Notes: generated by a model not told the origin, from the letters alone. A DNA stretch of 64,000 nucleotides from a virus (IMGVR_UViG_3300037141_000236:24948-88947), one strand, 5' to 3'; numbered from the stretch's first letter, positions 22,160-63,712 are shown. Made by a program: numbers and translations.

Positions 22160-23089
22160 ATGGCATCGGTGACAATGAAACAAACAGACTTTATTCTCAA
22201 ACAAGCAGTACAACTCAAAGGGACAAAGTTTTGGGGCAAAGTAAGAATGATTGAAACAGATCCCGAGACAGGAGAACAAACTCGTATTTATGTGCAACTT
22301 CTTTCTTCAAAGAGGGATCACCATGAAGCTTCTGGATTTAAAACAGAGAGGTTTGACTACCAACTTGTTCCATGCCTGTTTGATGAAATAGAAGACAGGG
22401 CTGCTTCTAATAATGACATTTTCTCTTTAATATCAAGAGGAGACCTGGCAAAGATCAAAACGCTCAAACTTAAAAACCTTGACAGGCAACCTATGGGCCG
22501 AGCCATAGGTCATCACGGTGCGATTGGCTGGGCTCTTGCTGTCGGAACCATTGAAGTGATTCAGTACCTTCTGGAATATTCTCCGAAACTAAGACATTCA
22601 GCAGGTTGGCTTAACTATCTTTATAATAGGCAAGCGACAACAACACAAGCTGAGTACCTTTTGATTTATGATCTTCTTTTAAAACATTACCCCAATCAAT
22701 TGGTAAACTCCCAGGTGGTTCGCAATATGCAATATCAGGAAGATAAATATTTCGCGATAATACCAATGTATCTTAAACAAGAAGGTGTGGCAGCACGCAA
22801 TGTAAAAGGATACCAAAACTTACTTGTCCACGCTTTACGTTCCGGAGCTTATAAAATAGCACAACATTTGATTGTGAATGGGTTTGATTTATACCAAACC
22901 ATTGATTTTTTAAAACATGAATCTTTTCGCACACATGGTAATCCCGATCGAACCCAATTAGATGGTGTTCGAGAGATATTGAAAAGTCGTGGCCATGCAA
23001 GCACAGCTATTGAGGATCTTATTAAGTTCGCCAAGGATCCAGAACGTTGGGAAGCGAATGAAGTAATCAAACAAGAAATCGGGTTATGA
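22160..23089 (+). CDS. Ankyrin-repeat-like protein with C-terminal EIGL tag
   Basis: AIGWALAVGTIEVIQYLLE and LLVHALRSGAYKIAQHLIVNG repeats; ends VIKQEIGL*. Confidence 0.6.
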   Translation: MASVTMKQTDFILKQAVQLKGTKFWGKVRMIETDPETGEQTRIYVQLLSSKRDHHEASGFKTERFDYQLVPCLFDEIEDRAASNNDIFSLISRGDLAKIKTLKLKNLDRQPMGRAIGHHGAIGWALAVGTIEVIQYLLEYSPKLRHSAGWLNYLYNRQATTTQAEYLLIYDLLLKHYPNQLVNSQVVRNMQYQEDKYFAIIPMYLKQEGVAARNVKGYQNLLVHALRSGAYKIAQHLIVNGFDLYQTIDFLKHESFRTHGNPDRTQLDGVREILKSRGHASTAIEDLIKFAKDPERWEANEVIKQEIGL

Positions 23090-23451
23090 AAACCATAGAA
23101 GAAGACTTTTGTGTTCTCTTGCCTGAAGATCGGGAAGAAAACAAAATTGTATTCTTGCGTATTGAACTTCTTCTTTTAGATAATGGCTATCAATGGCCGG
23201 GATCTCAAATATTTGATTATAAAAAGACCTTCAGATACCTGCCGCGAGCAACAAAGTTTACAGTTCGAAAAGAGGAGCGCGGTAAATTTATAAGGTATTC
23301 AACATTTCCTCATGCAGAAGGGTTCTGTATATCTCCTGATATATTAATTGATTACTTTGAAAACGATGGTTTATATCCACCTGCGTTACAAAGAGCATAC
23401 GATTGGATTCACATGGAAATTTACCCTGATCCAATAACCCTAGCGTGCTAA
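23086..23451 (+). CDS. Hypothetical protein with near-terminal tag variant
   Basis: AYDWIHMEIYP near the C-terminus. Confidence 0.55.
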   Translation: MKTIEEDFCVLLPEDREENKIVFLRIELLLLDNGYQWPGSQIFDYKKTFRYLPRATKFTVRKEERGKFIRYSTFPHAEGFCISPDILIDYFENDGLYPPALQRAYDWIHMEIYPDPITLAC

Positions 23452-23519
23452 CATTCTCAACAATAAGGTTTATCCGTTAACAATCTTTCTATATCTTTAC
23501 GGTATCAATAACAACGCCC

Positions 23520-25026: not shown

Positions 25027-25049
25027 GAACAATCTTCACTGTATTAAAG

Positions 25050-25316: not shown

Positions 25317-25640
25317 ATGAGCTGGGGAGATGATGGCGAACCAATGGAAGACTTTTCAAGTTTTGTCCCTAATCCTTTGGAAGAGATAAACGAAAAGTTG
25401 AGAACGGATGCCGCTGTCCTGAAAAGGGCTATATGGTCTCTTGGCCAAAAGATTGTGGAACTTGAAGACGCTGTGATAAAAAGGGATCAGTATCTAAAAG
25501 AAGCGAAGGCATGTACAGATAAGCAGTATGTAGAAATAATACAATTAAGAGAAATGCTTGCAGAATTAACAGGAGATGGCCTTTCTGCAGCCGAACACAA
25601 AATTAAAAAAGAAATCAATGCGTCCAATAAAGATAATTAA
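25317..25640 (+). CDS. Coiled-coil protein with tag variant
   Basis: AAEHKIKKEINASNKDN*. Confidence 0.6.
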   Translation: MSWGDDGEPMEDFSSFVPNPLEEINEKLRTDAAVLKRAIWSLGQKIVELEDAVIKRDQYLKEAKACTDKQYVEIIQLREMLAELTGDGLSAAEHKIKKEINASNKDN

Positions 25641-27764: not shown

Positions 27765-28184
27765 ATGGCAGTGAAAGTAAAGAAAGAACCTCTTAAACTA
27801 GGTGAAGATATCGAATGGGGCAAAGGGAAAAACAATTTTCAAACAACGGTAATTGGTTTCTTCCAACCACCTTTAGGGTCGTATGCTTACAGGACACCTC
27901 CAAAGAGAATCTTAATTGAACTACCTGAAAGTAAAGTTCAACGTTTTAAAAACGCGTATAACCCCATTTACACTGGTAAGCAGTTAAAAATAATGTATAA
28001 AAACAAACAAGATCAAATTAAAATGCATCTTGTGGAAGATATAAAACATTATGCAGTGGCAAATCCAACAGGGTTAAGACGCTTGGATCCTTTTATGCAA
28101 GCGCAAAGAGCAATCTTAAATGAAATTTATGTTGGAAGACACACAAGTCCTTCCGGCGTTTTAATAAGACAAGTTAAAAAATAA
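27765..28184 (+). CDS. Hypothetical protein with near-terminal tag variant
   Basis: LKLGEDI start; DPFMQAQRAILNEIY. Confidence 0.55.
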   Translation: MAVKVKKEPLKLGEDIEWGKGKNNFQTTVIGFFQPPLGSYAYRTPPKRILIELPESKVQRFKNAYNPIYTGKQLKIMYKNKQDQIKMHLVEDIKHYAVANPTGLRRLDPFMQAQRAILNEIYVGRHTSPSGVLIRQVKK

Positions 28185-32713: not shown

Positions 32714-32968
32714 ATGATCATTTCATTTCTCTTTGGTTTGTTTGTTTCTCTTGCTGGGGTTATTGTTTATGCAGTGACCACAAGCGATAGTGAATCACAA
32801 TCCATAAAAGCATTGGAAGGTGAAAGAGATCGTTTAAAAGGTTCGCAGCAACATATGTTTGAAATGTGCGAAGACTTCAAAGAGTGTAATCAGGAATTGA
32901 AAGTCGAAAACGAAAAATTAAAAGTTAACGACCCGTATGAGAAAATGCGGAAAGAATGTGGGCTATGA
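32714..32968 (+). CDS. TM-anchored coiled-coil protein with tag
   Basis: N-terminal TM; ends DPYEKMRKECGL*. Confidence 0.6.
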   Translation: MIISFLFGLFVSLAGVIVYAVTTSDSESQSIKALEGERDRLKGSQQHMFEMCEDFKECNQELKVENEKLKVNDPYEKMRKECGL

Positions 32969-33465
32969 TTTTACTTATCTGTTCTATTATTTGGGGTATC
33001 ATCGGGTTAATCATGTCAATAGTATTTGTTGCTGACAGCGACAATACGGATGATCACAATGCCCTTGAGTGTTTTCTTATCTTCCTGTGTATTACTGCTT
33101 TTGGGATTCCTTTATTAGCAGCAGCTGGTATTCACAATATATGGATGCAGTTTAATAAGAAATCCTATAAGAAAGAAAAAGCATTAGCTGTAAAGATCAT
33201 TGATGACATGCAAAAGAAGATTGATGAATTGGAACGTGAAAAAGAAGAAGATGATAACTGTATTAAACGAATGGCTCGTGAATATCAGGATCTGAATACT
33301 GCTTACAAAAAGCTCATTCACGACGATCCCATAGAAAAGATGCGCAGAGAGATTGGTTTGGGCATTGAACCTGAAGAAGAAAAACTTACAGTAAGACCAG
33401 CAATAAAATTCACCAAGAAACGTAAAAAGAAACCAGTGTCTACTGGTTCTTCATCAACATTTTAA
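32956..33465 (+). CDS. Two-TM coiled-coil protein with sub-terminal tag
   Basis: DPIEKMRREIGL followed by a basic extension. Confidence 0.6.
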   Translation: MWAMILLICSIIWGIIGLIMSIVFVADSDNTDDHNALECFLIFLCITAFGIPLLAAAGIHNIWMQFNKKSYKKEKALAVKIIDDMQKKIDELEREKEEDDNCIKRMAREYQDLNTAYKKLIHDDPIEKMRREIGLGIEPEEEKLTVRPAIKFTKKRKKKPVSTGSSSTF

Positions 33466-34719: not shown

Positions 34720-35218
34720 GGAGTGGACTTATATGGATAAGAGTGGTTGGAATAGAGGGCCTTGGGATAAAGAACCTGACAAAGCAATTTGGATTGACCC
34801 CACGACTGGTTATCATGTTTCCATTGTAAGGACACATACCGGAGCTTTGTGTGGTTATGTGATGGTACCGAAGTCACACAAAATGTATAAGAAAGCTTAC
34901 GATGACGTTCCTTATGAATGTCACGGCGGATTAACTTTCGGTAGAGAAAAGGAACAAGACAAAGTTCCAAATCAAACAATACAATATATGCCGATGAAAC
35001 GACTTTCATCACCTAAGAAAATGAAAGTGTTTGGTTTCGATTGCGCACACTATGGAGACTTGTCTCCCGGAATGGCTTTAAACTTTGGCAATAGAGAAGA
35101 GACATACAAAGATTGGGTTTATGTAAAGAATGAAGTAGAACAGTTGGCGTTACAGTTTTGGGGTGACGATGATACAGCTGGCGCAATTAACAAAATAAAA
35201 CAAGAGATTGGGTTATGA
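34706..35218 (+). CDS. Conserved phage protein (G.LCGYV/HGGLTF/GFDCAH family) with EIGL tag
   Basis: Motifs as named; ends AINKIKQEIGL*. Confidence 0.7.
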   Translation: MENYKEWTYMDKSGWNRGPWDKEPDKAIWIDPTTGYHVSIVRTHTGALCGYVMVPKSHKMYKKAYDDVPYECHGGLTFGREKEQDKVPNQTIQYMPMKRLSSPKKMKVFGFDCAHYGDLSPGMALNFGNREETYKDWVYVKNEVEQLALQFWGDDDTAGAINKIKQEIGL

Positions 35219-35988
35219 GCAGATTCAACATAGGTAATATGGCGCGTTTAAAATCCCCATCAAGTCTTTTGAAAGATGGTTGGGTTAAAGATGCTCTTGG
35301 AGGGTATAGTCATCCAAGCTATTGTTTGACAATTAATTCATCGATGGCAGGGGAACTGGTATATGCTCGTCTTGCATTGATTTCAAGAATTGACGATAAG
35401 CATGTTGAATTTTCGAATATTGGATACACTTGGCCTTTACGTGTAATGGAGAACTGGGAGGAAATTGGTTTGTCAGAAGAGGAACCAGAAGTAATCATTG
35501 AAGAACACCCTGCTAAAGTACATATCACCGCCAGCGTTCTAACTGAACAATCAGCTTTAGCAGAGATATTCTTTACAGACTTTCTTGGGAAACTCGATCC
35601 AATACAAAAGATAAGAGCAGCTAAGGTTCTCATTTCTGAATTTGAACCTCACAATCCCATCCTGCAAAAGCTTTGTGGCGATACAGAAATATTTAATTCT
35701 AAAGACGTCCCAAGAGGAGCCTGGATGAATAATTCCAGAGCCGTCGATACTGGGCCTTACGTTGTAGCATGTCAGAGAATGGGAAGCAGACTTACTTTTG
35801 TTAAGCTTGTTATGAACAAAACAGGTCTTGGGTTGAAAGAAGCAAAGGATGTTGTGGACAATTTGCTTTCGCCTTCTACTCATACAGTTGTTGCCTACAA
35901 TCTTTCTCTTGATTGGGCAAATGAATGGGTGGCAGATATCAATTATGAGTGTCCCGATGCAAATGCCCAGGTGGGAATTTTAATTTAA
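35215..35988 (+). CDS. Protein with C-terminal ribosomal L7/L12-CTD-like domain
   Basis: SRLTFVKLVMNKTGLGLKEAKDVVD resembles bL12 KI.VIK.VR..TGLGLKEAK.LVE. Confidence 0.65.
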   Translation: MSRFNIGNMARLKSPSSLLKDGWVKDALGGYSHPSYCLTINSSMAGELVYARLALISRIDDKHVEFSNIGYTWPLRVMENWEEIGLSEEEPEVIIEEHPAKVHITASVLTEQSALAEIFFTDFLGKLDPIQKIRAAKVLISEFEPHNPILQKLCGDTEIFNSKDVPRGAWMNNSRAVDTGPYVVACQRMGSRLTFVKLVMNKTGLGLKEAKDVVDNLLSPSTHTVVAYNLSLDWANEWVADINYECPDANAQVGILI

Positions 35989-38051: not shown

Positions 38052-38294
38052 ATGTTTAATCTCGGTGATATTGTCGTGCGAATTGATAACAGCCATCACG
38101 GAATGAGTATTGGAATGATTTCCCGTATTGTTGGTTTTGAACGAGATCAACTTAGATTACACGATTTCAATCCAGATACTTCTCATATGCCTGAAAACTT
38201 TAGACACGCAACAGATGAAGAAGCATTCGATTATCGACAAAAACATTACACAAGTACAAAATTACAAATCATGAAAGAAGTTTATGGGGAATGA
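38052..38294 (+). CDS. SH3/KOW-like small protein with tag variant
   Basis: FNLGDIV start; ends KLQIMKEVYGE*. Confidence 0.6.
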   Translation: MFNLGDIVVRIDNSHHGMSIGMISRIVGFERDQLRLHDFNPDTSHMPENFRHATDEEAFDYRQKHYTSTKLQIMKEVYGE

Positions 38295-38516
38295 ATATGA
38301 TGAAGTGATGAAAGCAATGATTGTAACGTTTGCTACTCGCTTAAAAGAAAACCCCGACGAAGTGATAGTAATTGAATCGTTCATCATTGAAGAAGGATTG
38401 AAATACTTTACTGAAACGGAACAATACGAGTTATGTCAGCTTTTATTAAACTTCACAAAGGATCACCCTGAGAAGGTTATTTTGATGACAAAGAAACAAT
38501 TTTTCGAAGACGACAA

Positions 38517-38933
38517 ATGGGAAACGATATAAAATATAAATCCGGAGATCGTGTAACAGTTAAGTTGGAAGGTATTCCAGAGTTCGAAGCAAAGATCATG
38601 GCAAAAGAACAATGGAACGCTGATCAGCATGAAAAGAATCTTAATTGGTTCCTTTCCCTTGCCGGTGTTAAACCATCAATTAAAAAATTGATTGGGATAT
38701 TACAAGATGACGATGATAATGGTGATCGTGATTTTACAATTTGGAAACCACAAGATTATGATTGTATTGATGATATCGTTTGGGATTCTTTTGTGGGCAC
38801 ACCGCCGTTCTTCAGAAGACAACATTACTTATGGACACTTGAAAAATATTTCAGACCATCATCCGGTATTATCGCAGAGGAATATAAGATAAAAAAAGAG
38901 ATTTATGGCGAAGGTACCAGACTTAAATTATAA
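38517..38933 (+). CDS. SH3/KOW-like protein with tag variant
   Basis: YKSGDRV; EEYKIKKEIYG. Confidence 0.6.
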   Translation: MGNDIKYKSGDRVTVKLEGIPEFEAKIMAKEQWNADQHEKNLNWFLSLAGVKPSIKKLIGILQDDDDNGDRDFTIWKPQDYDCIDDIVWDSFVGTPPFFRRQHYLWTLEKYFRPSSGIIAEEYKIKKEIYGEGTRLKL

Positions 38934-39300
38934 TTTCAAAGCAGGTGATATTGTAAGTATCACCCTACCCAGTATTGAAACATTTGAATCTCGCATTGTG
39001 GGATTAGATAATCAATGGGCTACAATTGGTTCTCCTTGGTATTGCGAAATACCAATTGAACTTATTCCGCGCTTGCAAGAAATACAAGACAATCAGGGCA
39101 AGAACCCTTTAATTTGGGTTCTTGGTTTAAAAGCAATGGAAAAACACGTAGTTGAAAAACGTTTTACTCTCGCTCATGGGATATTACCTTTTAAAGAAGG
39201 AATGGGCTATGCCACACTTGATGAGCAATATATCGAAGAAAGCCCTTTTGCACTGGCAGAATTTAAAATAAGAATGGAAACAGGATTGAAATTAAGATAA
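38905..39300 (+). CDS. SH3/KOW-like protein with tag
   Basis: FKAGDIV; AEFKIRMETGLKLR*. Confidence 0.6.
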   Translation: MAKVPDLNYNFKAGDIVSITLPSIETFESRIVGLDNQWATIGSPWYCEIPIELIPRLQEIQDNQGKNPLIWVLGLKAMEKHVVEKRFTLAHGILPFKEGMGYATLDEQYIEESPFALAEFKIRMETGLKLR

Positions 39301-39903
39301 ATCAAATAGGGAATCCAAAGCCTTATTAACATCCACGAATCCAACAACACCATCAACTGTGCCTTGATTACTATACTGCCAAACAGTGTAATGATCCCAT
39401 CCATGAGGAAGTGTAGGTTGATCTTCATTGGCGTACTGAGCAAGCCACAATGGAATCATCCCGAAGGTATGATCTTTAGGAAGATATTGATTAAAGAAAG
39501 GAGTATAACTATAAATCATAATGTTATGCCCTAGATCCTTCATCGTATCAATAAAACATTGAATCCATTCCCTTACAAGTTCCGGAGACAAGTTACTTTT
39601 ATTAGTTTCGATATCTAATACAGGAAGAATATCATAAGCAGGAAATTTATCGAGCGCTGCAGCAAATGCTGTTGCTTCTGCTTTGGCATCAACCATAACG
39701 CCAGGATCATTCATCTCAGCAAAGTGATAATAACCTACTTTAAGTCCCGCCGCTTTAGCATTGGTACCGTGTGATATAGCAGTTGCATCCATAAACTTGA
39801 TACCATCAGTTGATTTAATATAAACGAAAGAAAGCTCTTCAGCTTTTACTTTAGAGAAGTCAGGGTTCCCTTGCCAATGTGAAATGTCTATGCCTAATGC
39901 CAT
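39292..39903 (-). CDS. GH25 muramidase (endolysin)
   Basis: GIDISHWQG, YIKSTDG, GYYHF, VLDIE, LWLAQY, WQYS..G.V.G...VD.N; true start ATG at 39903. Confidence 0.92.
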   Translation of the reverse strand: MALGIDISHWQGNPDFSKVKAEELSFVYIKSTDGIKFMDATAISHGTNAKAAGLKVGYYHFAEMNDPGVMVDAKAEATAFAAALDKFPAYDILPVLDIETNKSNLSPELVREWIQCFIDTMKDLGHNIMIYSYTPFFNQYLPKDHTFGMIPLWLAQYANEDQPTLPHGWDHYTVWQYSNQGTVDGVVGFVDVNKALDSLFDLS

Positions 39904-39991
39904 TATGTTACCTATTTTGATCTTTAAATAGGTGTTTTTCAGCAGGTTTATAAATATAAATCGTAAATTTAGCTTATAATACACAAACACT

Positions 39992-41457
39992 ATGAGAGCA
40001 ATCGATGTAAGTAAATTAAAAGTTATCGCTTTGGCCGTACTAATGAGAGCTTCAGGCAAAATACCTGATGATCATATGGAAAACACCTTTTCGGCTGCTT
40101 GGGATCACGCTAAAGAAAGAGAGGAAAGAGAAGGCGATGTTGTAGAAGCTGCAACGTGGAGACAAGAAGGCATAAATGGTATGCAGTTTGGATTTGCATA
40201 TCCAACTTATCTTCAGAAGGGAGAAATGTTTTACGTTATGATTGGCGATGAAGTTGTTGCCGTCGATAAAAAGTATTTGTATCCCGTTTTCGGGCCGACA
40301 GATTCAAAGACAATGAGAGCAGAAGTTGAAAAAATGAAGAAAGAAGTTGGACTATGAATAAAGCCATAACACCTGCAATGCTTCCTTTGTTGAAAGGAAG
40401 CAATGTGAAATGTATCAAAGCTTCCTTTACTGGAGGACTCCTGGTTGAAGGCAAAATTTATACAGTTGAACGAGTTTTGTTGAGAGACAATCAATTGTTA
40501 AAGCTGAAGGGAATTCAAAATCAGAATTTCAGACCGGCAAGGTTTGAATTGGTTATTTATACATTGAAGCTTCGGGAAATAATGATTAAAGAAGAAATTG
40601 GACTATGAAACCAGAAGAATTTAGATTAGAAATGATCGTCAGAGTTAAAGATGACGCAAAAGATTCTGACTTCACCCCAGGAGAAAAACTTTTAACAAAA
40701 GGGATCATTTATTTTGAAGGGAATTATTTTATTCTTGTACAAGCCTGGAATAAAGAAAAAAAGAATCTCGGGCCGAACATCAATATCAGCGAAGTTGAGG
40801 TGGTGAAAACTGAAATGGAAGAACAGATGGAGAAAATCAAAAAAGAAATACAATCATGAAGCCGGAAGATTTTAGATTAGGAGCTACAGCCGTTGTCGTT
40901 GGTGATGATCAAACCGGCTACCATAATGGTGAGGTAATCATAATGAAAGGAGTTTATTGGTCTTGGAGGACTGGATGCCATTATGTTTTAACAAAATCCT
41001 TGCGGGATCAAAACCAAAACTTATCTATTGAAGGAAATATCAGTTTGAGTGCTTTGGAATATCCCACGACACCTTTGGAAAAGGAAATGAAAAGAATTAA
41101 AAGCGAGATCAATAGCGAAGGAAAATGAATACACACAAATATCATTTAGGCGACATTACTTTAAAAGCAGGTATTGAACATGAAGTTATATCAATCGTTT
41201 GGCAAAAGAGATATAAAACATTTGTTTATGGTATCACAAACGGGTCAAAAGGATCTGTTACCGATACACAAGCTTACTACCATAAATTCCTTCTTGCGGA
41301 TGATAGTTATGATATAATAGAATGGGATACTAACAAACGATTTCTTAAATGTGCAGTACAATTCGTTGAAGAAGATAGTTTATCAATCATTCGAACGGGC
41401 ATAGCTGCCTACATTGAGCAGCATGAACGCATAATCAGAGAAGAAATTGGCTTGTGA
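39992..41457 (+). other. Cluster of 5 coupled tagged ORFs (39992-40357, 40354-40608, 40605-40859, 40856-41128, 41125-41457)
   Basis: Ends MKKEVGL, IKEEIGL, IKKEIQS, IKSEINSEGK, IREEIGL; every junction is an ATGA overlap. Confidence 0.75.
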
Positions 41458-41487
41458 TTTATTCTTAAAAGCCATATTTAATAGTCA

Positions 41488-44260: not shown

Positions 44261-45175
44261 GTGATATGATGATTGTTGATGGGCGATACGAAAGAATCGT
44301 TGCCACCGGAGTGATCAGTGATAGAGAACCAAGAAAGTTATACGCCATGAAATGCGAAAGAGGTAGAGGTAATACGCTTAAAGATTGTCTTAAATCATCA
44401 ATATTCTGGGGCGAAGTCATCGTATATGAAGGTGTTGATGTAAATGAAAACGTTTGGTGGATACAAGAAGATATGATACAAATTTCAGATGATACTTTAA
44501 GTTATCAAACAGAGTTAATAAGACAAGAAATTGGGTTATGACAAATTTAAAGCCAGGCGATTGGGTTGTAATGGGCGAACCAGGTTCTGGTTGGACTCTG
44601 AATGAAAAAGGACTTGTCGCACAAGTTAAAGAAGTGGGGCGTTTTTCTTACGATTATGATATTGTTTTAGATTCTGCATCAAACCCTGGATTAATAGGAA
44701 CCCAGTGCGCAGGAGAAGTTTCAGGATTAAAAGGCTGCACTTCTGAAAGATTATATACTGCATCACGAGTGCAAATAGAAGAACAGCTTTCAAGACTTCC
44801 TGGAACATTCCATTATGCTTTACGTATAATAAAACAAGAAATAGGGTTATGTGTCACTTAGGCGATATTGTTTTACATACTCCCACAGGTATCACCGGCG
44901 TAATTGGAGCTCTCGGTGCACCCAAGAAAAAATCCGCTGATGTAAGAGACTGTGTTATCATTGTGGATTCTTCTTTCAAAGACTACAAAGCAGTTTTCCC
45001 AATGCAAAAGGATTATATTAAACAATGGAAGGCACAAAGAAATAATTTCACATATCTAAGTAAACTCAAACCTCCCTTAAGTTGTATTTGGGTTCCGAAA
45101 GAAGAAATAGAAATCATTATGCCAGGAGTTTTAGTTGCAGTAATTAAAAAAATAAGAAAAGAAATCGGCTTATGA
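44236..45175 (+). other. Three SH3/KOW-like tagged ORFs (44236-44541, 44538-44861, 44849-45175)
   Basis: YKVGD/LKPGDWV/HLGDIV starts; IRQEIGL, IKQEIGLCVT, IRKEIGL ends. Confidence 0.75.
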
Positions 45176-50737: not shown

Positions 50738-50757
50738 ATCAGAAAGGAAATTGGATT

Positions 50758-51383
50758 ATGAATTTCAAGGTAAGAGATTGGGTTATATATGAAGGTCAGC
50801 CTTATCAAATTGCTTTAATACTGGGCAATGTAAAAAGCAATGATTGTTTACTCATTGTACCAAAAGGTTTTAAAACTGCTTTCCAATTAAATGCAGGAAG
50901 TATCCCTGCCTGGAAAACCTTAATAAAAGGTTTTCCAGGCAAAAAGTTCGAAGTAATACAGGCAGAAGAGTTAGTTCATGTGGGATCTGTTTATTACTTC
51001 TGGTGCACGACAGATGAACTTTCCGGTACGGTTGGAATAACTGTTGAGGAAATAAAGATTAAAAAAGAAATAGGTCTATGAGCAAATTCAAAATAGGAGA
51101 TCGTGTTGAATGTCTCACCATCAAAGAACTTATTGTAAAGAACCCTACTTTTGGTAAAGCTAAGATTACTGAAGTTGGGTCATGGGCAGGTGCAGGCTAC
51201 AAAGAAGGCAAAAGGTTTACAATTCGAACAGAGAATAATGGAAAGGATGAAACTGCATACTTTCCTCTTGAAATAGATGCTGATCCACATAGAGGCGTTT
51301 ATGGTTGGGCTTTGAAACTATCTCTTGCCACCATTGAGGAAGTAGAACAAGATATCTTAAAAGAGATTTATTCTAAGGAATAA
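50758..51383 (+). other. Two SH3/KOW-like tagged ORFs (50758-51081, 51078-51383)
   Basis: MNFKVRDWV...IKKEIGL*; MSKFKIGDRV...ILKEIYSKE*. Confidence 0.72.
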
Positions 51384-55101: not shown

Positions 55102-55350
55102 ATGGCGAAGGTAGAAATTTCAAGAGTAGACTTTCTTGTTGCATTGGCAAAAGCAAGCGCAGCTACTCCAGAAGAACAAGAATTGGTTAAAGACAGTCTT
55201 GCACTGATTTTGAATGCACATTTGTTTTTAGAAGAAGCAACACCCAAACAACTTGAAATATTGGATGCAAAGAAAGAAGCTTGGTTGAAATGGAAGAACA
55301 GTGGCGAGTCAGCTGAAGACACAATCAAAAGAGAAATCGGACTAATATGA
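55102..55350 (+). CDS. Helical protein with EIGL tag
   Basis: Ends SAEDTIKREIGLI*. Confidence 0.65.
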   Translation: MAKVEISRVDFLVALAKASAATPEEQELVKDSLALILNAHLFLEEATPKQLEILDAKKEAWLKWKNSGESAEDTIKREIGLI

Positions 55351-56363: not shown

Positions 56364-58143
56364 ATGCAAAAGTTTGACCTTCTGGATAAGATAACATTAA
56401 AACATCACCCAGGAGCTTTTACAATCGTGGGTGTGATCACGCCTAATCCTGATTTGGAAGAAAGAACATATCTCATTTCTATTCCGTTAAAATTCAGTGA
56501 TGGTTTTCTATATACTCTTGAAATGCGAGACGGTTGGCAAGCAGGCCAATGGTTTGATTATACCACGTTTATAGAACCAATGATGATTGAAGGCAAATAC
56601 TATATGTGGGTTAGCGAATGGAAAGTAAAAGATAGCGTACTCACACCGGAACAACTAATCGTTAAACAAATAAGACAAGAGATCGGATTATGAGCTTCAA
56701 AGCAGGTGATATCATTGAGACAACGTTTATGCCTGGAAGGTTTCTGGTGATGATGTATCGTCCGAAAGAAGACCCGAAGAGCAGCATGATTGAATATATG
56801 ATTGCGTTGCCAGACGATTTCAAAATACCCACCGCAGAACATAAAATTTGTGATGTCAAAGAAGATTTCTTTCAAGAGTATAAAAAAGCTGGATACAAGA
56901 GTGATTGGCCTAAATGGATTGCAGAGTCTCCTGGCTCAGAAAAATATGTTTTGGTTGGGCAAAGATATATGTGGGTTCATCCAGAAGAAATAAAAGATCC
57001 TTTTGAAACAACCGAAGAGCAAATAATAAAAGAAATTGGCCTATGAGCAAGTACAAGCCCGGTGAATGGGTTAAGGTTAAGGGACTTGAAGGTGAGTTCC
57101 AAATCTATCTCTATCGTAAGTATGAAAATACCAGGATTTCTTCCGGATATATTATTGGTGTTACCAAGAATGTTGATCAACATTCTATATTTGATGGCCA
57201 TGATGAAGAATGGGCTAGGTGGATCCATAATTCACCCGGCTCAGAAAAATTTATGCTCCGTGGAGTAACCTATGCTTGGATTGAGGAAGAAGATATTGCT
57301 GGTGAAGATCCTTTACAATCAACTGAACGTATAATCAAACGAGAAATTGGGCTGCCATGAAGAACATACTATTATTCCTTTCGGGTAAATACAAGCGGTC
57401 TTTGCTTTTAAAAGCGGAGAAGGTTGTTTGGGACATCTATAAGAATCAAGGACTAACATCAACAGGATGGGCCGCAAGAGAAGCAATAAGAAAACTTAAA
57501 TAGCCATGTTTAAAGAAGGAGACCAATTCGTTGTCAAGACAAAAGAACAGTTTGCTGCTGAATTTGGAACAAAGGAAAACTCTAATAACTTTCTTTTGGA
57601 ATCTGATGGCCACATAATTTATTTTAATGATGCCAACATGGGTAAATTTTATGGTAAAGTTGTAACAATATGTCAGATAATGGGAAGAGGTCGGTATACA
57701 ATAAAGGAAGAACAAATTTATAAATGGACAGCTGAAATGTTTCAACTAAATATTACAGCAACCTTGGCTTCCGCCGAACACATAATAAGAGAAGAAATTG
57801 GGTTATGATACTATATGCAATAAAATATAAGCCCGGAGATAAAGTTCGTGTAAGATTCTTTGAAGACCTTCAAACGAAATATTCTTCTGACCCAAGAACC
57901 AGCTGTTTACTTATTCCTGCTGAGACAGATAGGAATTCGATTCAATTTTTAGGGTCTATGACACTCTTGTGTGGTAAAATAGTTACCATTTCAAATGTTA
58001 TCCCGCAAGACTCTCATAAAAAGAAATATGATCGTTATTATGTTGTAGAAGACGACAATGACAGTTATTGGTCAGATGCAATGTTTATTTCTCCAGAAGA
58101 AAAAGCTACATTACAAATTAAACAAGAGATAGGTTTAGTATGA
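56364..58143 (+). other. Five SH3/KOW-like tagged ORFs (56364-56693, 56690-57046, 57043-57360, 57506-57808, 57805-58143)
   Basis: Ends IRQEIGL, IIKEIGL, IKREIGLP, IREEIGL, IKQEIGLV. Confidence 0.78.
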
Positions 58144-58962
58144 TCCACACTTGTTAACAATCTTATAACCTTTGCTGGTGATTTTATGATAAGCTTTACG
58201 GATCCCTTTAAGAAGTCTCTTAACCATTGATTCTTTCATTTCAGGGCCAAAGCTCTTTGATTTTCTACCTCCCCAATTCTGGCCCATGAATGGTTCTTCC
58301 GACGCCAAATGAATACAAACAATCTCTGGAATGAACTTCCTTTTACCTGCAGGAAATTGTTTAAGATGTAATACATCAGTACGATCGTATGCTGCATGTT
58401 CTCTTGGATAAGTTATGACTCCAGATCCAATTGGATTCCACATTTGAAAGAAACCTATTGGCCAATAACCATCTCCTTTGTATTGAACTACTCGTTGTCC
58501 AATTGGAAAATGATGCATATGCATATAAACCCAGCCATCATAGATTGGTTTATGAATACTTTGATGGATAAACTCTTGCCAAGCTTTATATGAATTGCAC
58601 ATTAAGCGATCTATGCCATAGATACAGTCTTTATCTAGCGATAAACGATCTAATAACTCTTTTGTAAGAGGGGGAAGCCAGATATCAGCATCTAGTTGCA
58701 CTACCCAACCATCCTTATCTAATTTCTTGAGGCCTTCGTTGATTCCCAAAGCTTTGTTTGCCACAGGGCCATCAGTATAGAACGCATCAGTTTGAATGCA
58801 AGGAACATTATAAAATTGACATACTTGGAAAGTAGCCAAGTCTTTAGTGTCGGTCACAACAACCATACGATTAAAGAGAGATTTATTATTTGGAAGGGTG
58901 ACTTTTAGAAAATCACTGTAGCCAATACAAACTACAACTGCTTCGATCTTGATTTGGGACAT
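58135..58962 (-). CDS. GT-A (GT2-like) glycosyltransferase
   Basis: VVVTD, NKALGINEGL, LDADI (DxD), IGFFQ, D..H; TATTTA at 58982 (-). Confidence 0.8.
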   Translation of the reverse strand: MSQIKIEAVVVCIGYSDFLKVTLPNNKSLFNRMVVVTDTKDLATFQVCQFYNVPCIQTDAFYTDGPVANKALGINEGLKKLDKDGWVVQLDADIWLPPLTKELLDRLSLDKDCIYGIDRLMCNSYKAWQEFIHQSIHKPIYDGWVYMHMHHFPIGQRVVQYKGDGYWPIGFFQMWNPIGSGVITYPREHAAYDRTDVLHLKQFPAGKRKFIPEIVCIHLASEEPFMGQNWGGRKSKSFGPEMKESMVKRLLKGIRKAYHKITSKGYKIVNKCGSY

Positions 58963-59162
58963 TTAGAGCCTATTTTTATTATAAATAGACTAATGATTAT
59001 GTAAACTTTGAGAAGTAGATTACTTTTTCCTGAGTTTATAAGTATGTTCGTAGCATATTCGAATCATCACCCAACGTTTATTCCTCCATACAAACACTAC
59101 AAATTGCGTAGCTTTACCACAATGATGACAATGCGGTCTATCTTTTCGCATTATTGTTTTCA

Positions 59163-59807
59163 CTATTCAGAAGCCTCACAACACATTTCTTCACCAGCTT
59201 CTCTGCCTTCCATTTCTTCTCCGAAGGCCACATCAAGTTTATAAGACTTGTCTCCAGCACCTGAGGTTTTTGTGTTAAACTCTTTCTTCTTGCCATTTAC
59301 GACAATTGAAAGGATCTTATAGTTTGTGAAACCCGAGAGGTCCCACATTTTAAGAGCTCCAAATAATTCTGCTTCAGAATCGAACTTAAGAAGGATATAA
59401 TCTTCAGGTTTACTGCTGTAAGCCCTTTGTAGTTTGCGTTCTTTAGGTTTGGATTCTTCATCTCCTTCTAATATTCCAAGCATTTTATGCGCAGGTTTAT
59501 GCGCAGGTTTACCAGAAGAATGCCTTGCTTTTATTTTACGATCCTCATGACCATATTTTGACTTAACGGCTTCATCACCCAGTGAATCCATTTCATCCCC
59601 CAAGTCACCATTATCATACTTCGCGACAATTACTTCCTTACCAAAGAAATCATCAATGATATGACTATAAATCAACGCTGCTGCATCTTCACGAGAGACA
59701 TGAAGCTTGGTAACAGCTTCATCGATCTTACTTTGGATCACAGACTTTTGTTCACTTGTTAAAAGGTATTGCGGGACGAGTACGGTACTTACTTCTTTCG
59801 GATTCAT
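59163..59807 (-). CDS. Hypothetical protein
   Basis: 214 aa ORF on the - strand. Confidence 0.6.
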   Translation of the reverse strand: MNPKEVSTVLVPQYLLTSEQKSVIQSKIDEAVTKLHVSREDAAALIYSHIIDDFFGKEVIVAKYDNGDLGDEMDSLGDEAVKSKYGHEDRKIKARHSSGKPAHKPAHKMLGILEGDEESKPKERKLQRAYSSKPEDYILLKFDSEAELFGALKMWDLSGFTNYKILSIVVNGKKKEFNTKTSGAGDKSYKLDVAFGEEMEGREAGEEMCCEASE

Positions 59808-59923
59808 GTTTTATGTTATCAAGGTTTAGAAGATAAATCTGTGAAATTAATATTAGCTAAACAACAAACCCGTTCTTTTTCATGTGAATTTGAGTGTTTA
59901 TTTGTATTTTTAGGTTATAAACT

Positions 59924-60534
59924 GTGAAGACTATGTTGAAAGAAGGTGATCTTGTGCGCTTTAAGACTTGGGAAGAGCTCTGTGATGAGTATGGAGAAGA
60001 TCCTTCTGGTAAGGTTTACCTTCCTAACGGTAGAGCTCTGCTGAAAAAACGGCTTGGTGATATTTTAGGCAGTGCAGCTTATCTAGATAAACTTACCATT
60101 GATAATATGTGGATTGTCAAACCTGGCAGCCGGCCATGGTTTCCAGAACTGTTTAAAAAGTTTGAACCAATTGATGAAGCAATGTTAAAAATAAGAAAAG
60201 AAATATGGCAACAGTAAATTATAAACCCAAAGAAGAATTTAGTCTTGGGGAATTTGTCACACATGATAATTGTGAGAAGCTGGGAGGCGATCAAATTATA
60301 ATGATTGCTACTCGTCTTGTGGACAATGTAACGTTTTTTGGCATAGAGGATAAAGGGAGAGGTATGTATTGGGAAAAGTTTGGAGGTAAATCCATGCACA
60401 CAATTAAAACGCTCAGTGGAATTTCCCTTGGTAAAACGAAAGTGGCCTTCTACGATGCACACAATTTAACCAAAACAAATCACATAACAGTACAAGAAGA
60501 AATCATCAAACAAGAAATATACAATCAAAAATGA
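59924..60534 (+). other. Two tagged ORFs (59924-60217, 60205-60534)
   Basis: LKEGDLV...IRKEIWQQ*; FSLGEFV...IKQEIYNQK*. Confidence 0.7.
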
Positions 60535-61414
60535 CTCTAAAAGATAAAGCGGCTAAGGCCGAGAGAGATAAGGAAATGCAAGAATGGAAAGATGCATTGG
60601 CACTTGCCGAAGATATGACTCGCACAAGTAAAGTATTGGCTTGTACAACAATGTCTGATCTAAGAAAAGTGGTAAAGGAACTTGGCCCATTCATTTCTTA
60701 TTCAAGACCTGATGCTAAAGTTTGGGGTGCAGAAAAGATTTTGCTATCAATCATTGCAATAAGACAAGGCGCTGCGATTGAGCACATGACCAGAGTGAAT
60801 GGCTTGAGAGCGAAGGTAGCAGAACTAGTTCTGGCAAACAATTATGGACAACCTTGGGATGAAGCGTAAGAAACCTGACATGGATAGCATAAAGCAAATG
60901 ATTATGGATTTGCATGTTGCGGAACATCGCATAAGGAATGAGTGTGGCCTGACACCTGCAAATTTAACATTGGAAGAACGCTTGGCACTTAGTCTTTTAC
61001 ATTTAAAACAAAGCCAAGATGCTTTCATGAAAGCTGTTAATGAAACGGCGGGCATTACTGAGGAAGCAAAGGCCGCAGCTGCAAAGAAACTTAAAGAAAT
61101 GGCTAAAAAGAAAGGAGAAAGTAAATGATTTGGCTAATAGGTTATTTGGCAATTGGATTAATTTCACTGGGTGTGCTTTTATACAAGTATAAGAAAGACA
61201 CCCAAGAGATGGAAAAGGAACTTATGGTCTTTGCGGTCTTTTTAACAATCCTTGGCTGGCCAATAGTATTTGTCGGCGGAGCTATTCTTCAAAGGAATCT
61301 TAATAAGACAGTTCGCACACAAGCGGAACTGTTGGAACAAGAAAAGATGGCCGATATGGATGATGAAGAAAAAGCCAACTACATAATGATGCGCGACATT
61401 TTTAAAAAGAAACC

Positions 61415-63712
61415 ATGAAAACAAAGAAGTTTAACTTGGGAGATATTGTTAGGGATGATAATTCATCAACAACCGGTAAGATAATCATCATTGCGCAAAA
61501 CAGAGAGTCGAAGACCTATCATTATGGAATTGGAGATCCTAATAATGGGTACACAATTAAACATTTCTTCAAAAAATACGAATCACATTATTTTTTCACA
61601 TTTGATGGTGAAATGGAAGCCTCAGAAGAGGAAGTCACCTTTCACGATGAAAGTGTGTTGACTTTATTGACACCCGTGAATCCTTTAATTTCTGTCGAAC
61701 AACAAATAAGAAAAGAGATATGGCACCATTAAAACCAGGGGATTGTATTGTAAGAACATTACTAGGTGGTAACAGCAGAACCGCCTATAAATGCAACCAC
61801 ATTTATAAAGTACTACGTCATGAAGAGGATACTGTTTTCACTGAAATGGATTCGGTGGGAAGTAATCATAATGGTTGGGGAGTAGGACACTTTAGGAAAG
61901 CAACTCTCGAAGAAGCAGAGTTGTATGATCTGTTTGGCATCTGCGATTGCAACATCATTGATACAATGGAAAAAATGTTATTGGTTAGATACGAAAGAAT
62001 TATTAAAAGAGAAATTTATGGCAACAAAAAAGATCAAGCTTGTTAAGCCGAAATTCAAATACAAATATCACGTGGGCGATATTATTTGGGCCAATTGGGC
62101 ACCTGATGATGGATATGATCTTGAATTAGGAAGAGAAATTGTTGCTGTCATTTATAGAACTGACCTTAACGATCTCTTTTATGCAACAAAACCCATTGTA
62201 GGAGAAGAGCCCACCGGTTGTTTAATTGAACCGAATGATGATTATAAATTCATTGAGCTTTTACCTGGACAACCAACAAATGTTGAATTGGGTTTATATA
62301 TAAGTGAAGAAGAAGTTGATCATTGCGAGCCCATGACACCATTAAAGAAAGCCGAAGCAAAAATAAAACTTGAAATAGGATTAGTATGAAATTTCAGAAA
62401 GGAGATAAGGTAAGAATGCGACATGAAAGTGAATGGGCACACATACCTGGCTATGAACGTCATGAATTCTTACCTAAACAGCTTGCGCCTGTGGGCAGAG
62501 GCGCAATTCACAAATATACAAGAGTCACGATTGATTTTACACACGCAGCATTAAGTATGTCTGTAGAATCTTTAAATAAGATTGAAACTGTGACAGGTTG
62601 TTTTGGAAATATTGTTGCAACAGAAGGTTTTAATTTTCCTGAAGACTTATTAGAATTGGTTGAAGAAGCAGATGATAGCATACAAGCACAAGAACAACAA
62701 ATAATAAAAGAAGTTTATGGCAAAGCAAAAGAAATATAAACCAGGAGAACACATTACTCTTATCTCTACACATAACCGATATAAAGTAATGGTTGTTGCA
62801 GTTGAGAAAGAAACTGGAGAGTATTTTTATGCTTTCGAAGATAAAGAAAAAGGAAAGCCCTTAGAAGGATTTTCTGACAATGATCATTATGTATTTTCTT
62901 ATGCGCCGGAATATACAAGCGATACACTTTTAATCTTTGGCGGAGAAGATCGAGTCGCGTTCGAAGAAGATGAATTAGAAACAGTTTGTGAAAATATTAA
63001 AAAAGAAATAGGGCTGTAATATGACAAAGACAATGCAAAAATATAACCTGGGAGATTATATTACCGGGATCTATTCCGAACATCAATCAGATGCTTATTA
63101 TAATAATCTGTCAGCAAAAGATAGAAAAGGAAAGATCGTAGCAATCATAAGGGATTACAATGATATTTGGTATGGTGTAATTTCAGACGAAGTAAAATCA
63201 CCTTATTCAAAAGATCATTGGGAACTGGTTGATTGTGATGAAACTTGTGCCGCAGAGATGACAAATGTTAGTTGGTTGCAACAAGAAGCCATCGAAGTTG
63301 AAAAAGATCCGTTTTTATTAGCACAAATTAAAATAAGAAAGGAAATTGGAATATGATAACAGACTTTAAAACAGGCGACAGAGTTAAATTCAAACCAATT
63401 AAAGAATTGGAGAAGCTTTCTAATTGGATATCAACTGAAACTATTCATAATAGAACGGAAGAAAATTTGATGAGGCTTCTCTTTCAAGATCCGAAGTTAG
63501 AGAACCATAATTACGTCTTAACCAGACCTCATAATGTTTGGGATAAAGAATTTATTGTATCTTTAGTAAGAGAATACGACAATTGTTTAGAAATAGGTGA
63601 ACCACATACCGGGCCATTAGGCTATGCACACCAGTCTGAATGGTTTATGAAAGTTGATGATTTGAGCATCGCAGAACGACAAATTAAAAAAGAAATATAT
63701 GCTAACAGTTAA
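61415..63712 (+). other. Seven consecutive SH3/KOW-like tagged ORFs (61415, 61720, 62018, 62386, 62717, 63021, 63353)
   Basis: Each has a [FYL]xxG[DE] motif near the start; ends IRKEIW, IKREIY, IKLEIGL, IIKEVY, IKKEIGL, IRKEIGI, IKKEIY. Confidence 0.8.

Follow-up and report, generated by a model that had tools for sequence, protein, structure and literature searches.

This locus raises the question of why some 35 small accessory proteins, encoded by an uncultured giant phage from peat, share one C-terminal end. In the 64,000-nucleotide window analysed here (positions counted from its first letter; all tails lie on the + strand), these proteins finish in a common 16-residue capped helix, for which 35 tails gave the extended consensus D-P-[LIF]-x-x-A-E-x-x-I-[KR]-x-E-I-G-L. 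The original prediction had listed 23 ORFs with E-[IVCT]-G-[LI] and 15 with I-x-x-E-[IV]-[YWNQ] at or near the C-terminus; each carries its motif (23/23 and 15/15), and the terminal position held for most, but not for the ORFs ending at 33465 (motif 35 residues before the stop), 28184 (19), 43097 (13) and 23451 (9). Across six frames of the entire 88.9-kb record, [IVLM][KRI]xE[IVCT][GYWNQ] matched 43 times on the + strand and 3 times on the - strand, with 34 of the 43 matches at most 8 residues from a stop and the tail-coding stretches in frame with long ORFs, with one exception. The core [IVLM][KR]xE[IV] occurred within the final 15 residues of 27/165 called proteins, compared with a mean of 0.63 (maximum 4) in 1000 whole-protein shuffles and 1.43 (maximum 5) in 1000 shuffles of the final 15 residues only, so the comparison with shuffled sequences that had been proposed came out clearly in favour of C-terminal enrichment (27 versus about 1). 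A parallel result was obtained for E[IV]G[LI], found in 20/165 proteins versus 0.19 and 0.36 in the two kinds of shuffle. All 27 core-tailed proteins fall within the 99 proteins of 22.1-64 kb, while none of the 34 proteins of 0-22.1 kb and none of the 32 upstream of the window carries the core, in line with the predicted absence from structural genes.

The tail is kept by selection at the protein level. The wobble bases of its Ile, Ile and Gly codons hold 0.13, 0.20 and 0.06 bits of information, as opposed to 1.3-2.4 bits for the first two positions of the codons, and the same-codon share at shared tail residues was 0.55 against 0.50 ± 0.03 expected. All four Gly, three Ile and both Glu codons occur, and Leu is retained even where no ATGA overlap demands it (TTG-TGA at 41457, CTG-TAA at 63019), both as claimed beforehand. 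No pair of tails reached 26 identical bases of 30, and neighbouring tails were no closer than distant ones (17.0 vs 17.3 identical bases), which indicates no recent homogenisation; IREEIGL-stop at 57785..57808 shows 88% DNA identity over 33 nt with the tail ending at 41457. In 38 same-length strain comparisons, which are non-independent events, changes affected 5/380 tail sites and 233/4042 body sites (odds ratio 0.22, P = 4e-5), a roughly fourfold rarity that, together with the free wobble bases, upholds the claim of conservation as protein and not as DNA. Four strain SNPs are listed in the last 12 codons of IIKEIGL-stop (57023..57046), three of them synonymous and the fourth a T-to-A replacement upstream of the core. 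I[IK][KR]xEI[GY] or a close variant is also kept in seven distant relatives, the bodies of which show 19-33% identity or give no BLASTP match to the record's proteins.

The tail also lies where the following gene begins. ATGA overlaps join the next start to IKEEIGL-stop (40585..40608), IKKEIQS-stop (40836..40859), IKSEINSEGK-stop (41096..41128), IKMEIGL-stop (43366..43389), IKQEIGLT-stop (43593..43619), IKKEIGL-stop (51058..51081), IKREIGLP-stop (57334..57360), IKQEIYNQK-stop (60505..60534), IKLEIGLV-stop (62363..62389) and IRKEIGI-stop (63333..63356). The Y/W/N variants arise because the ATG of the following gene is embedded in the tail: within TAT-G in IMKEVYGE-stop (38268..38294, ATG 38284), IKKEIYG plus 7 residues (38889..38933, ATG 38905), IKREIYG plus 7 (62002..62046, ATG 62018), IIKEVYG plus 5 (62701..62739, ATG 62717) and IKKEIYANS-stop (63683..63712, ATG 63699 of a SET-domain gene); within ATA-TGG in IRKEIWQQ-stop (60191..60217, ATG 60205) and IRKEIWHH-stop (61706..61732, ATG 61720); and within AAT-G in IKKEIN plus 6 (25602..25640, ATG 25618), the end of a 107-aa coiled-coil-like protein. 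ATG 44849 lies within TT-ATG-T of IKQEIGLCVT-stop (44829..44861), and the next ATG stands 1 nt on from IKKEIGL-stop at 62996..63019. Overall, a start adjoins 30/35 tailed versus 33/60 untailed genes (P = 0.003), an association that counts against a docking function of the helix; synonymous choice leans toward A (Lys AAA 19/20, Arg AGA 10/12, Ile ATA 15/32), and Gly is GGR at position -3 in 18/23. The leaders are A-rich, G-poor and devoid of SD sequences, as are Bacteroidetes leaders in the passages of PMC6847099 that describe them, where A is favoured at -3. These observations would suit a translation-level element serving the next gene, either an A-rich initiation region for a non-SD host or a nascent peptide tuning termination and re-initiation, which we nevertheless judge very improbable: conservation follows a three-base periodicity with the wobble free, the variable middle codon falls inside what would have to be a contiguous RNA site, the spacing from Glu codon to ATG takes values of 2, 4, 8 or 11 nt, the 33 untailed genes are as tightly coupled, the late genes are coupled without any tail, and the distance from tail to stop ranges from 1 to 13 residues, unlike that of an arrest peptide. 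The GG of the Gly codon at -5/-4 (68% and 60% G) likewise runs contrary to leader composition (16-17% G in the leaders of the other 105 starts), and five tails of canonical or near-canonical form lack an adjoining start downstream. The next start is 30 nt off, behind a late-type promoter-like box, at IREEIGL-stop (41434..41457, TTG TGA) and 48 nt off at IKREIGLI-stop (55324..55350); ILKEIYSKE-stop (51354..51383) is followed by a 164-nt gap with no adjoining start; and no + gene follows the degenerate IRMETGLKLR-stop (39268..39300) or IKQEIGLV-stop (58117..58143), each of which faces a convergent - gene (58135-58962 in the latter case).

Whether the tail belongs to one protein family depends on the bodies that carry it. 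About 21-28 carriers look like a single fast-diverging beta-barrel family of about 100 aa with an N-terminal [FY]KxGDxV strand. Tandem arrays of tailed genes of about 80-140 aa, mostly ATGA-coupled and many with this strand, lie within 38052..45175 (38052-39300, 39992-41457 and 43102-45175), and arrays of the same type occupy 56364..63712 (56364-58143 and 59924-63712) and 50758-51383. The N-terminal signature G[DE]x[VIF] was present in 19/33 tailed versus 4/62 untailed proteins, two of the latter four being tail variants that the regex overlooked, and an alignment of the tailed proteins revealed common N-terminal, Trp and tail motifs. The original description of about 38 unrelated proteins is overstated: at least eight carriers have other folds, but roughly two thirds share the N-terminal motif and size class and look like paralogs that diverged within a single, tandemly arrayed family. 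It is possible that most carriers form one family and that much of the conservation thus reflects the family's own structural helix, a point against docking. If so, the tail would be the last structural element of an expanded paralog family with no common reader, and unrelated genes would have acquired it by hitch-hiking, through recombination at the junctions and in-frame reading to the ATGA for coupling; we regard this explanation as possible but rather doubtful. A body-only cross-validated profile recovered only 8/28 putative members (E below 0.05) and BLASTP joined only three pairs, yet the tail is near-invariant, and such constancy on such different bodies fits poorly with packing in cis. 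In addition, no helix follows the repeats in the multi-repeat barrel relatives P0155, P0167 and P0174, which implies that the helix is not integral to that barrel, and in 16 comparisons across the eight non-family clusters there was 1 tail change versus 55 body changes.

The carriers of other kinds further bear on this point, and the tail does occur on several clearly different scaffolds, as had been claimed. IKQEIGL-stop (23066..23089) ends a 309-aa protein (22160-23089) outside the beta-barrel family with a weak ankyrin-repeat match; MRKECGL-stop (32945..32968) ends an 84-aa protein with a hydrophobic N-terminal membrane-like segment; MRREIGL (33340..33360) is internal to 32956-33465, a membrane-like protein, and lies ahead of an acidic and then a basic stretch; NWEEIGL (35452..35472), also internal, belongs to 35215-35988, where an acidic hinge comes after it and the end of the protein resembles the bL12 C-terminal domain; and MKKEVGL-stop (40334..40357) ends a 121-aa protein (39992-40357) without the N-terminal motif. 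On the phrog_2164 protein 34706-35218, the tail is an add-on: the family match covers residues 17-150 of 170, IKQEIGL-stop (35195..35218) comes after the linker WGDDDTAGAIN, and among the protein's 120 listed relatives only its own 98%-identical cluster representative has it. The 82-aa helical protein 55102-55350, a non-family carrier, fits the family-helix explanation better, as the invariant tail Glu is changed to Lys in strain variant P0141 and variant P0142, on four contigs, is a 69-aa form without the tail; both variants count against a docking helix. Weaker instances comprise IRVEVW (43038..43097), 13 residues short of the stop, on a body that fell in the family in both cross-validation folds; IHMEIY (23407..23424), 9 residues short of the stop of 23086-23451, which may be due to chance; ILNEIY (28113..28130), 19 residues short of the stop of 27765-28184 and probably no tail; and IRNECGL (60931..60951), tail-like but near the N-terminus of 60844-61128, which may be an ordinary helix-turn.

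Of the dispersed repeats in the region, the junction of tail and ATG is at the same time the main one (families D1-D11 and D15, 24-57 nt, 61-92% identical), which suggests that homologous recombination moves gene cassettes here, and strain contigs break at it, each joint being seen on single low-depth contigs matched at 80% likeness. One such contig skips the 311 nt between two tails (44515 to 44827, 15 bases in common), IRQEIGL-stop (44518..44541) and the tail at 44829..44861; matching ends at 45178, directly after IRKEIGL-stop (45152..45175), and at 50738; contigs enter from other tails at 50732 and at 62716, the latter within the tail at 62701..62739; and a 548-nt skip ends at ATG 56690, which overlaps IRQEIGL-stop (56670..56693). 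An orphan IRKEIGL-stop (50738..50761) directly follows, and is in frame with, the TAA of a 41-aa membrane-like ORF (50612-50737), its end overlapping ATG 50758 of a family gene, and in one strain this TAA is followed by a different gene. Tail junctions thus mark cassette swaps between strains, and the tail codons with the overlapping ATG form a recombination joint, which would offer unrelated genes another way of gaining tails. The breakpoints and the orphan, which demonstrates that tail DNA can persist untranslated, agree with hitch-hiking; however, it is the only untranslated tail found, versus about ten in-frame tails on non-family genes. The origin of the Y/W/N variants in an embedded ATG, the identity of the junction as the main repeat and the strain breaks at junctions are new here; the embedded start and the recombination joint had been overlooked in the original prediction.

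We put the probability of a docking handle, taken as a whole, at about even. The tail would be a self-contained 16-residue amphipathic helix with an N-cap (D/T/S-P), a Gly-Leu C-cap and one invariant hydrophobic stripe (L/I, A, I, I), found mainly on ~100-aa beta-barrel accessory proteins, a large and fast-diverging family whose genes stand in tandem, translationally coupled arrays, probably of a non-late expression class. Homologous recombination where the last tail codons overlap the following ATG would swap, delete and insert cassettes, and other folds (membrane-like, ankyrin-like and the phrog_2164 protein) may have gained an in-frame tail through it. The same hydrophobic face on otherwise dissimilar bodies suggests a common partner, phage or host, onto which the helix would dock every carrier, and the tail would then be a common handle for a variable arsenal. 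Core residues 6-7 are chemically non-equivalent (G-L versus Y-G, W, N or Q), which counts against a docking helix, and 19/35 tails have 1-13 residues beyond G-L or its equivalent, which argues against a signal needing a fixed free C-terminus. No partner of the tail was found in the record, which represents 28% of the genome, so that the proposed addressing system is still something that we infer.

A virion version of docking, in which small proteins would be loaded into the prohead for co-injection, seems unlikely. In T4, the capsid targeting sequence (CTS) is removed by the prohead protease, which cuts at hydrophobic-x-Glu. Among the genes of the present record are those of a T4-type prohead core protease (Peptidase_S77, E = 1.1e-19) and of a major head protein (phrog_138), and, as in T4, small hypervariable proteins share a short conserved peptide. 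According to the relevant passages of PMC3012670, T4 internal proteins are highly diverse defence proteins with only the CTS in common. Unlike the N-terminal CTS, however, the tail is C-terminal or occasionally internal and has no recognisable cleavage site; the T4 protease site is not matched consistently, Lys or Arg standing three residues before the invariant Glu. Moreover, its carriers lie outside the late block, 0/66 proteins in and around the structural block are tailed, about 35 cargo species would be many, and the late-type box ATATTTAATA stands ahead of structural genes and of no tailed array, while other promoter-like boxes (TATCTTTAnGGT) occupy the 22-64 kb accessory region, a TATTTTTAGGT variant standing directly before the tailed array at 59924.

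Other known systems resemble the tail in part. As described in passages of PMC2839356 and PMC4122927, PeSLs are short dispersed repeats at gene borders of a hyperplastic region, where recombination leads to insertions, deletions and replacements between close strains, and strain contigs here similarly break at repeats; PeSLs, however, are intergenic regulatory DNA (promoter plus terminator), whereas the present repeat is coding, is translated into a conserved helix and overlaps the next start with no intergenic space. As a short terminal peptide on unrelated proteins, presumably with one reader, the tail is also comparable to C-terminal docking peptides. Clamp-binding tails, C-terminal degrons and encapsulin cargo-loading peptides are each read by one hub. 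The bacterial clamp-binding consensus is QL[SD]LF, which the tail does not fit. A search of the PDB with the tail profile (E up to 10) matched only seven distinct sequences, namely of MreB (AERIKKEIG), a coiled-coil region, a designed minibinder and two designed coiled coils, one a tetramer and the other three-stranded. As in the 'AE-x-IK-x-EIG' helix of MreB and in designed coiled coils, the motif is a common way of building and capping a helix, although there the helix is internal to one fold, whereas here it ends about 35 proteins of one region.

A shared C-terminal peptide with the core I-[KR]-x-E-I-G-L, here called the tail, is carried by about 35 small accessory proteins. The original prediction had listed 23 ORFs ending in E-[IVCT]-G-[LI] and 15 ending in I-x-x-E-[IV]-[YWNQ], and each of the 23 and each of the 15 ends was found as stated; the motif lay at or near the C-terminus for most of them, but was sub-terminal in the ORFs ending at 33465, 28184, 43097 and 23451. 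A six-frame count over the full record gave 43 occurrences of the broad motif on the + strand and 3 on the − strand; 34 of the 43 lay no more than 8 residues from a stop. Among 165 called proteins (simple codon-usage calls with start refinement rather than curated annotation), 27 carried [IVLM][KR]xE[IV] within the last 15 residues, compared to a mean of 0.63 (maximum 4) in whole-protein shuffles and 1.43 (maximum 5) in shuffles of the last 15 residues, and 20 carried E[IV]G[LI] (0.19 and 0.36 in the respective shuffles). The shuffles ruled out chance or composition as the source of the motif and bore out the expected C-terminal enrichment. All 27 carriers fell among the 99 proteins of 22.1-64 kb and none among the other 66, in agreement with the predicted absence from structural genes. 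A slightly wider pattern recovered 35 tails, whose 16-residue consensus, D-P-[LIF]-x-x-A-E-x-x-I-[KR]-x-E-I-G-L, reads as a complete putative helix, opened by an N-cap, closed by a Gly-Leu cap and bearing a single hydrophobic stripe, much as the proposed helix with a Gly C-cap. The tail was C-terminal in 35 cases and internal in 2-3; 16 of the 35 stopped exactly one residue past the core (15 with G-L or G-I, one with Q-S), and 19 had 1-13 further residues after that point.

That the motif is conserved as protein and not as DNA was upheld by several comparisons. Conservation along the tail codons had a three-base period, the wobble bases of Ile, Ile and Gly carrying 0.13, 0.20 and 0.06 bits and the first and second positions 1.3-2.4 bits, while residues common to two tails used the same codon in 55% of cases versus 50 ± 3% expected from genome codon usage. 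No two tails agreed at 26 or more of 30 bases, and adjacent tails were no more similar than remote ones, so the tails are not kept alike by recent DNA homogenisation, which was tested for and not seen. For strain variants, drawn from 90%-identity clusters (P0126, P0127, P0128, P0136, P0142, P0143, P0150 and P0180 were left out for their other length), 38 same-length comparisons yielded 5 changes at 380 tail sites relative to 233 at 4042 other sites (odds ratio 0.22, P = 4e-5, the comparisons being non-independent events). Furthermore, a search of 1.84 billion cluster representatives found seven distant relatives that keep I[IK][KR]xEI[GY] or a close variant, with bodies (the protein without the tail) only 19-33% identical to the record proteins or lacking a BLASTP match. 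Given the free wobble bases, the codon choice, the slow change among strains and the retention in distant relatives, we conclude that selection acts on the tail peptide.

The description of the carriers as unrelated stood in part: their bodies mostly lack BLASTP links (3 linked pairs among 33 carriers when tailless bodies were compared) and several other folds are present, but about two thirds are probably one family. An alignment of 28 carriers (77-138 aa) displayed a common N-terminal strand M-x-x-[FY]-K-x-G-D-x-V and a Trp strand before the tail, and among proteins with a tail 19 of 33 had G[DE]x[VIF] within their first 30 residues, as against 4 of 62 without one, two of these four being tail variants missed by the regular expression. 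In two-fold cross-validation, a body-only profile recognised 8 of 28 held-out members (E < 0.05), and it also caught the weakly tailed 42723-43097. The profile of all 28 carriers retrieved 33 proteins at E <= 0.001 among the 1.84 billion representatives, namely 21 from this phage or close strains, the 7 distant tailed relatives, and 5 long proteins of tandem KFKxGDxV repeats; of four repeat proteins whose full sequences were read, three (P0155, P0167 and P0174) lack a helix behind the repeats. Based on the shared N-terminal and Trp motifs, the profile results and the repeat relatives without a helix, about two thirds of the carriers probably form one fast-diverging small-barrel family to which the helix was added as a module. 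The repeat protein P0173 (348 aa, from another, GC-richer source) has five tandem barrel repeats followed by a tail-like helix …AEAAVAAIRKEIENG, which could be a chance likeness or an older barrel-helix link. The AF2 model of one family member was beta-rich with a C-terminal helix at residues 87-97, at modest confidence (mean pLDDT 67); Foldseek with a barrel member returned nothing from the PDB at E <= 0.001, and SH3/KOW-like neighbours in the Atlas (DUF2158, KOW, EF-P; TM 0.44-0.57) serve as leads only. None of nine barrel-family carriers tested had a Pfam or PHROGs profile match at E < 0.001.

A tenth protein in that test, the 170-aa product of 34706-35218, matched phrog_2164 over residues 17-150 (E 4e-24), and it gives direct evidence for a portable tail: proteins of this family usually stop a few residues past ...YV..EV..LA.QL, and here a linker, WGDDDTAGAIN, and then the tail come after that point. 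Among the best 120 of its 188 homologues (E <= 0.001), only its own 98%-identical cluster representative had the tail. Other carriers include a 309-aa protein with a weak ankyrin match (22160-23089), a coiled-coil-like 107-aa protein (25317-25640), two neighbouring membrane-like proteins, one with a terminal tail (32714-32968) and one with an internal tail (32956-33465), a 121-aa protein (39992-40357), and an 82-aa helical protein outside the barrel family (55102-55350). The last of these counts against any common function, as among its strain variants are one with Glu changed to Lys in the tail and a tailless 69-aa form, the latter on 4 contigs. Viral-contig searches with the phrog_2164 protein and with P0171, and a metagenome-contig search with the distant family member P0169, returned no relative, near-identical records possibly lying outside either set, and a degenerate-DNA-pattern scan of IMG/VR gave 15 single matches, which is chance level, with an ORF ending in the motif at 3 of the 15 loci. 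Downstream of the phrog_2164 carrier, 35215-35988 (257 aa) has a C-terminal end like that of the ribosomal protein bL12 CTD (Pfam Ribosomal_L12 at E 6.9e-5, below the cut-off; best PDB matches all L7/L12 chains, best E 0.0065, with ...TGLGLKEAKD.V in common), and the first third of the protein resembles a member of the barrel family, with an acidic hinge and a tail in internal position. The idea taken from this end, that the tail mimics the bL12 N-terminal domain, found no support: the dimerisation domain PF16320 had no match in the whole record at E <= 10, and no bL12 chain was among the PDB matches of the tail profile.

The IMG/VR virus record comprises 88,947 bases, with the window at bases 24948-88947, and since CheckV estimates 28% completeness it would be a fragment of an approximately 300-kb phage. 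Its genes include those for a T4-type prohead core protease (Peptidase_S77, E 1.1e-19) and a major head protein (phrog_138), for a tail sheath and a baseplate wedge protein, for a helicase and an AAA ATPase and, at 30090-30959, for a sigma-70-family factor. No near DNA relative was found in the phage collection, where the only matches were to distant ATPases. The sequencing runs containing the sequence are peat metagenomes, with no RNA run among those listed, and besides the possible source, 3 runs from 3 studies hold at least 72% of the sampled words. Leaders of starts not behind tails (n = 105) were 37-58% A and 4-19% G, without a Shine-Dalgarno signal, a leader type that has been described for Bacteroidetes (PMC6847099), which suggests that the host probably lacks Shine-Dalgarno-guided initiation and, by inference, belongs to the Bacteroidota.

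The tails lie on gene junctions, with an ATGA stop/start overlap (gap −4 nt) in 18 of 30 coupled tailed genes. In the Y/W/N "variant" tails, the ending arises because the ATG of the next gene is embedded in the tail codons (ATGs at 25618, 38284, 38905, 60205, 61720, 62018, 62717 and 63699, all on the + strand), with E-I-Y-G written as GAR ATH T-ATG-G, E-I-W as GAA AT-ATG-G and E-I-N-A as GAA ATC A-ATG-C. Synonymous choice in the tails leaned to A (Lys AAA in 19 of 20, Arg AGA in 10 of 12, Ile ATA in 15 of 32), and the Gly wobble base, falling at −3 relative to the next start in tails of the EIGL-stop class, was a purine in 18 of 23; this leaning would match leaders rich in A that favour A at −3. 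The Gly GG, in contrast, opposes the leader composition (G at 68% and 60% at −5 and −4 versus 16-17% elsewhere). Coupling influences the tail codons and the final two residues but does not account for the tail itself, because 33 untailed genes show equally tight coupling and late genes are coupled with no tail present, five tails have no adjoining start (39300, 41457, 51383, 55350 and 58143), the Glu codon stands at a variable distance (2, 4, 8 or 11 nt) from the ATG, and GG runs against the leader. A role of the tail at the level of translation, set beside these overlaps on one side and the equally tight untailed couplings on the other, appears highly improbable. A Shine-Dalgarno reading, with K-E as AAGGAG, was ruled out, the conserved pair being K-x-E, its Lys nearly always AAA and the genome without such a signal. 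The style of coupling differed between regions, mostly TAATG (gap −1) in the structural block 737-15481 and mostly ATGA (gap −4) in the accessory arrays.

The main dispersed repeat of 22-64 kb was the tail-plus-ATG junction itself, in repeat families D1-D11 and D15 (24-57 nt, 61-92% identical), the D2 repeat crossing the ATG into the N-terminal codons of the next gene. Strain contigs from four peat runs of four studies were compared over 43713-63712; the joints come from single contigs of depth 3-8 matched at 80% likeness, each of them weak, and it is their agreement that carries the pattern. One contig skipped 311 nt, from 44515 to 44827, passing from before one tail to before the next with 15 shared bases and thereby removing one cassette, and one lost its match at 45178, directly behind a tail. 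A 548-nt skip in one contig ended at the ATG 56690, behind a tail, and one contig joined at 62716 coming from a different tail (…AAATAAGAAAAGAGA). At 50738-50761 an orphan tail, stop-IRKEIGL-stop, lies in frame behind a 41-aa membrane-like ORF (50612-50737); one strain contig keeps the small ORF to its stop and then enters a different gene, while another reaches the orphan tail from a different upstream gene ending …KPTTSLYQQE. As the strain contigs differ on each side of this site, the orphan tail is best read as a recombination scar and not as a fresh nonsense mutation. The evidence from repeat joints for cassette gain and loss, taken from single contigs, is weak to moderate. PeSLs are described as intergenic units of a sigma-70-like promoter and a stem-loop terminator (PMC2839356), and they share with the junction repeats a dispersed placement at gene borders and the gain or loss of cassettes there between close strains, here at the joints or loose ends 44515/44827, 45178, 50732-50738, 56690 and 62716; unlike the PeSLs described there, the present repeat is part of the coding sequence and extends over the next ATG, with no intergenic promoter plus terminator. 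In kind, the pattern is that of the PeSLs, with a coding repeat.

Recombination at tail junctions also underlies the main alternative to a shared function, namely that the helix has significance for the barrel family alone and is carried along onto other genes, in-frame fusion being favoured because termination stays at ATGA. We consider this alternative possible but doubtful; if true, it would be a warning that shared terminal phage peptides can come from junction recombination and not from function. The reading we favour, at about even confidence, is docking of the carriers on a common partner, in which the helix would tie a variable arsenal of carriers to one hub. The common partner is suggested because packing in cis would hardly account for a hydrophobic face (L/I, A, I, I, then L past the Gly cap) that stays invariant on hypervariable or unrelated bodies. 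A degron role and docking on a host hub are possible alike. Beyond docking, we tentatively propose an addressing system, in which one reader would grip the 16-residue capped helix on at least 35 early accessory proteins of at least 6 folds in a host without Shine-Dalgarno-guided initiation (probably Bacteroidota), the helix codons serving as both the next-start overlap and the recombination joint. Because these codons overlap the next start and act as a joint, a gene dropped into the array would be coupled and addressed in one step, and addressing, expression and evolvability would all sit in the same 50 bases. The junction design suggests that hyperplastic regions may shuffle genes without breaking expression in hosts without Shine-Dalgarno-guided initiation. 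Phage accessory regions are rich in small orphan genes of unknown handling, and the shared tail would offer one handle, whether in pull-downs or in assays of localisation or stability, on many dozens of so far unknown proteins at a time, a quarter of the region's genes, and would also point to a hub used by the phage during takeover.

When compared with known systems, the tail profile had PDB matches that were all capped helices of a generic type, among them the MreB helix AERIKKEIG, a designed binder and a designed coiled coil. Bacterial sliding-clamp-binding peptides have the consensus QL[SD]LF or a close variant, a pattern at odds, on comparison by eye only, with where the hydrophobic residues of I-[KR]-x-E-I-G-L stand, and C-terminal degrons of the ssrA kind have fixed non-polar residues at the free C-terminus, a feature that the tail, with its varying number of residues past the core, may not share. 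The T4 CTS is N-terminal and is removed by the prohead protease, whereas the tail is C-terminal or, rarely, internal and has no consistent hydrophobic-x-Glu site. The T4 CTS is, like the tail, a short conserved peptide on otherwise diverse small phage proteins (PMC3012670). Within the docking reading, the tail might load carriers into the head, which we regard as unlikely: the late-type box ATATTTAATA stands before structural genes and before none of the tailed arrays. No description of the tail motif was found in the literature, one of the searches being a weak negative owing to many chance matches to surnames and place names; the finding is a short shared terminal peptide on diverse phage accessory proteins, and such peptides are already known in kind.

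The box ATATTTAATA(G) occurs 14-36 nt upstream of the starts of structural genes and of a few further ones, at window positions 17757, 41474 and 29153 and, within the 24947 record bases upstream of the window, at −23935, −1295 and −676; as a candidate late promoter, it may be recognised by the sigma factor that the phage encodes at 30090-30959. Other promoter-like boxes, TATCTTTAnGGT, are found in the 22-64 kb accessory region, with a variant TATTTTTAGGT directly before the tailed array at 59924. An intergenic cassette of about 120 nt is present in two copies (45871-45994 and 51420-51542, 77-80% identical), each ahead of a gene array and containing GGTTGGT-N15-TATCTTTATGGTATAG, and shorter boxes TATCTTTA(n)GGT precede 23520, 48126 and 49293; these cassettes and boxes, together with the TATTTTTAGGT variant, are candidate early or middle promoters. 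Among the remaining genes, 26014-26505 (163 aa) has two H-x-T-x motifs and weak Pfam matches to the 2'-5' RNA ligase superfamily (E 3e-4) and anti-CBASS Acb1 (E 0.02), a possible cyclic-nucleotide phosphodiesterase or counter-defence gene. The start of 45172-45588 (138 aa), which has an HEAGH motif and a weak match to the putative metallopeptidase DUF6782 (E 0.02), overlaps the stop of a tailed gene, and directly after the last tailed gene, 63699-63998, which runs off the window end, encodes a SET-domain protein (Pfam SET, E 1.7e-10).
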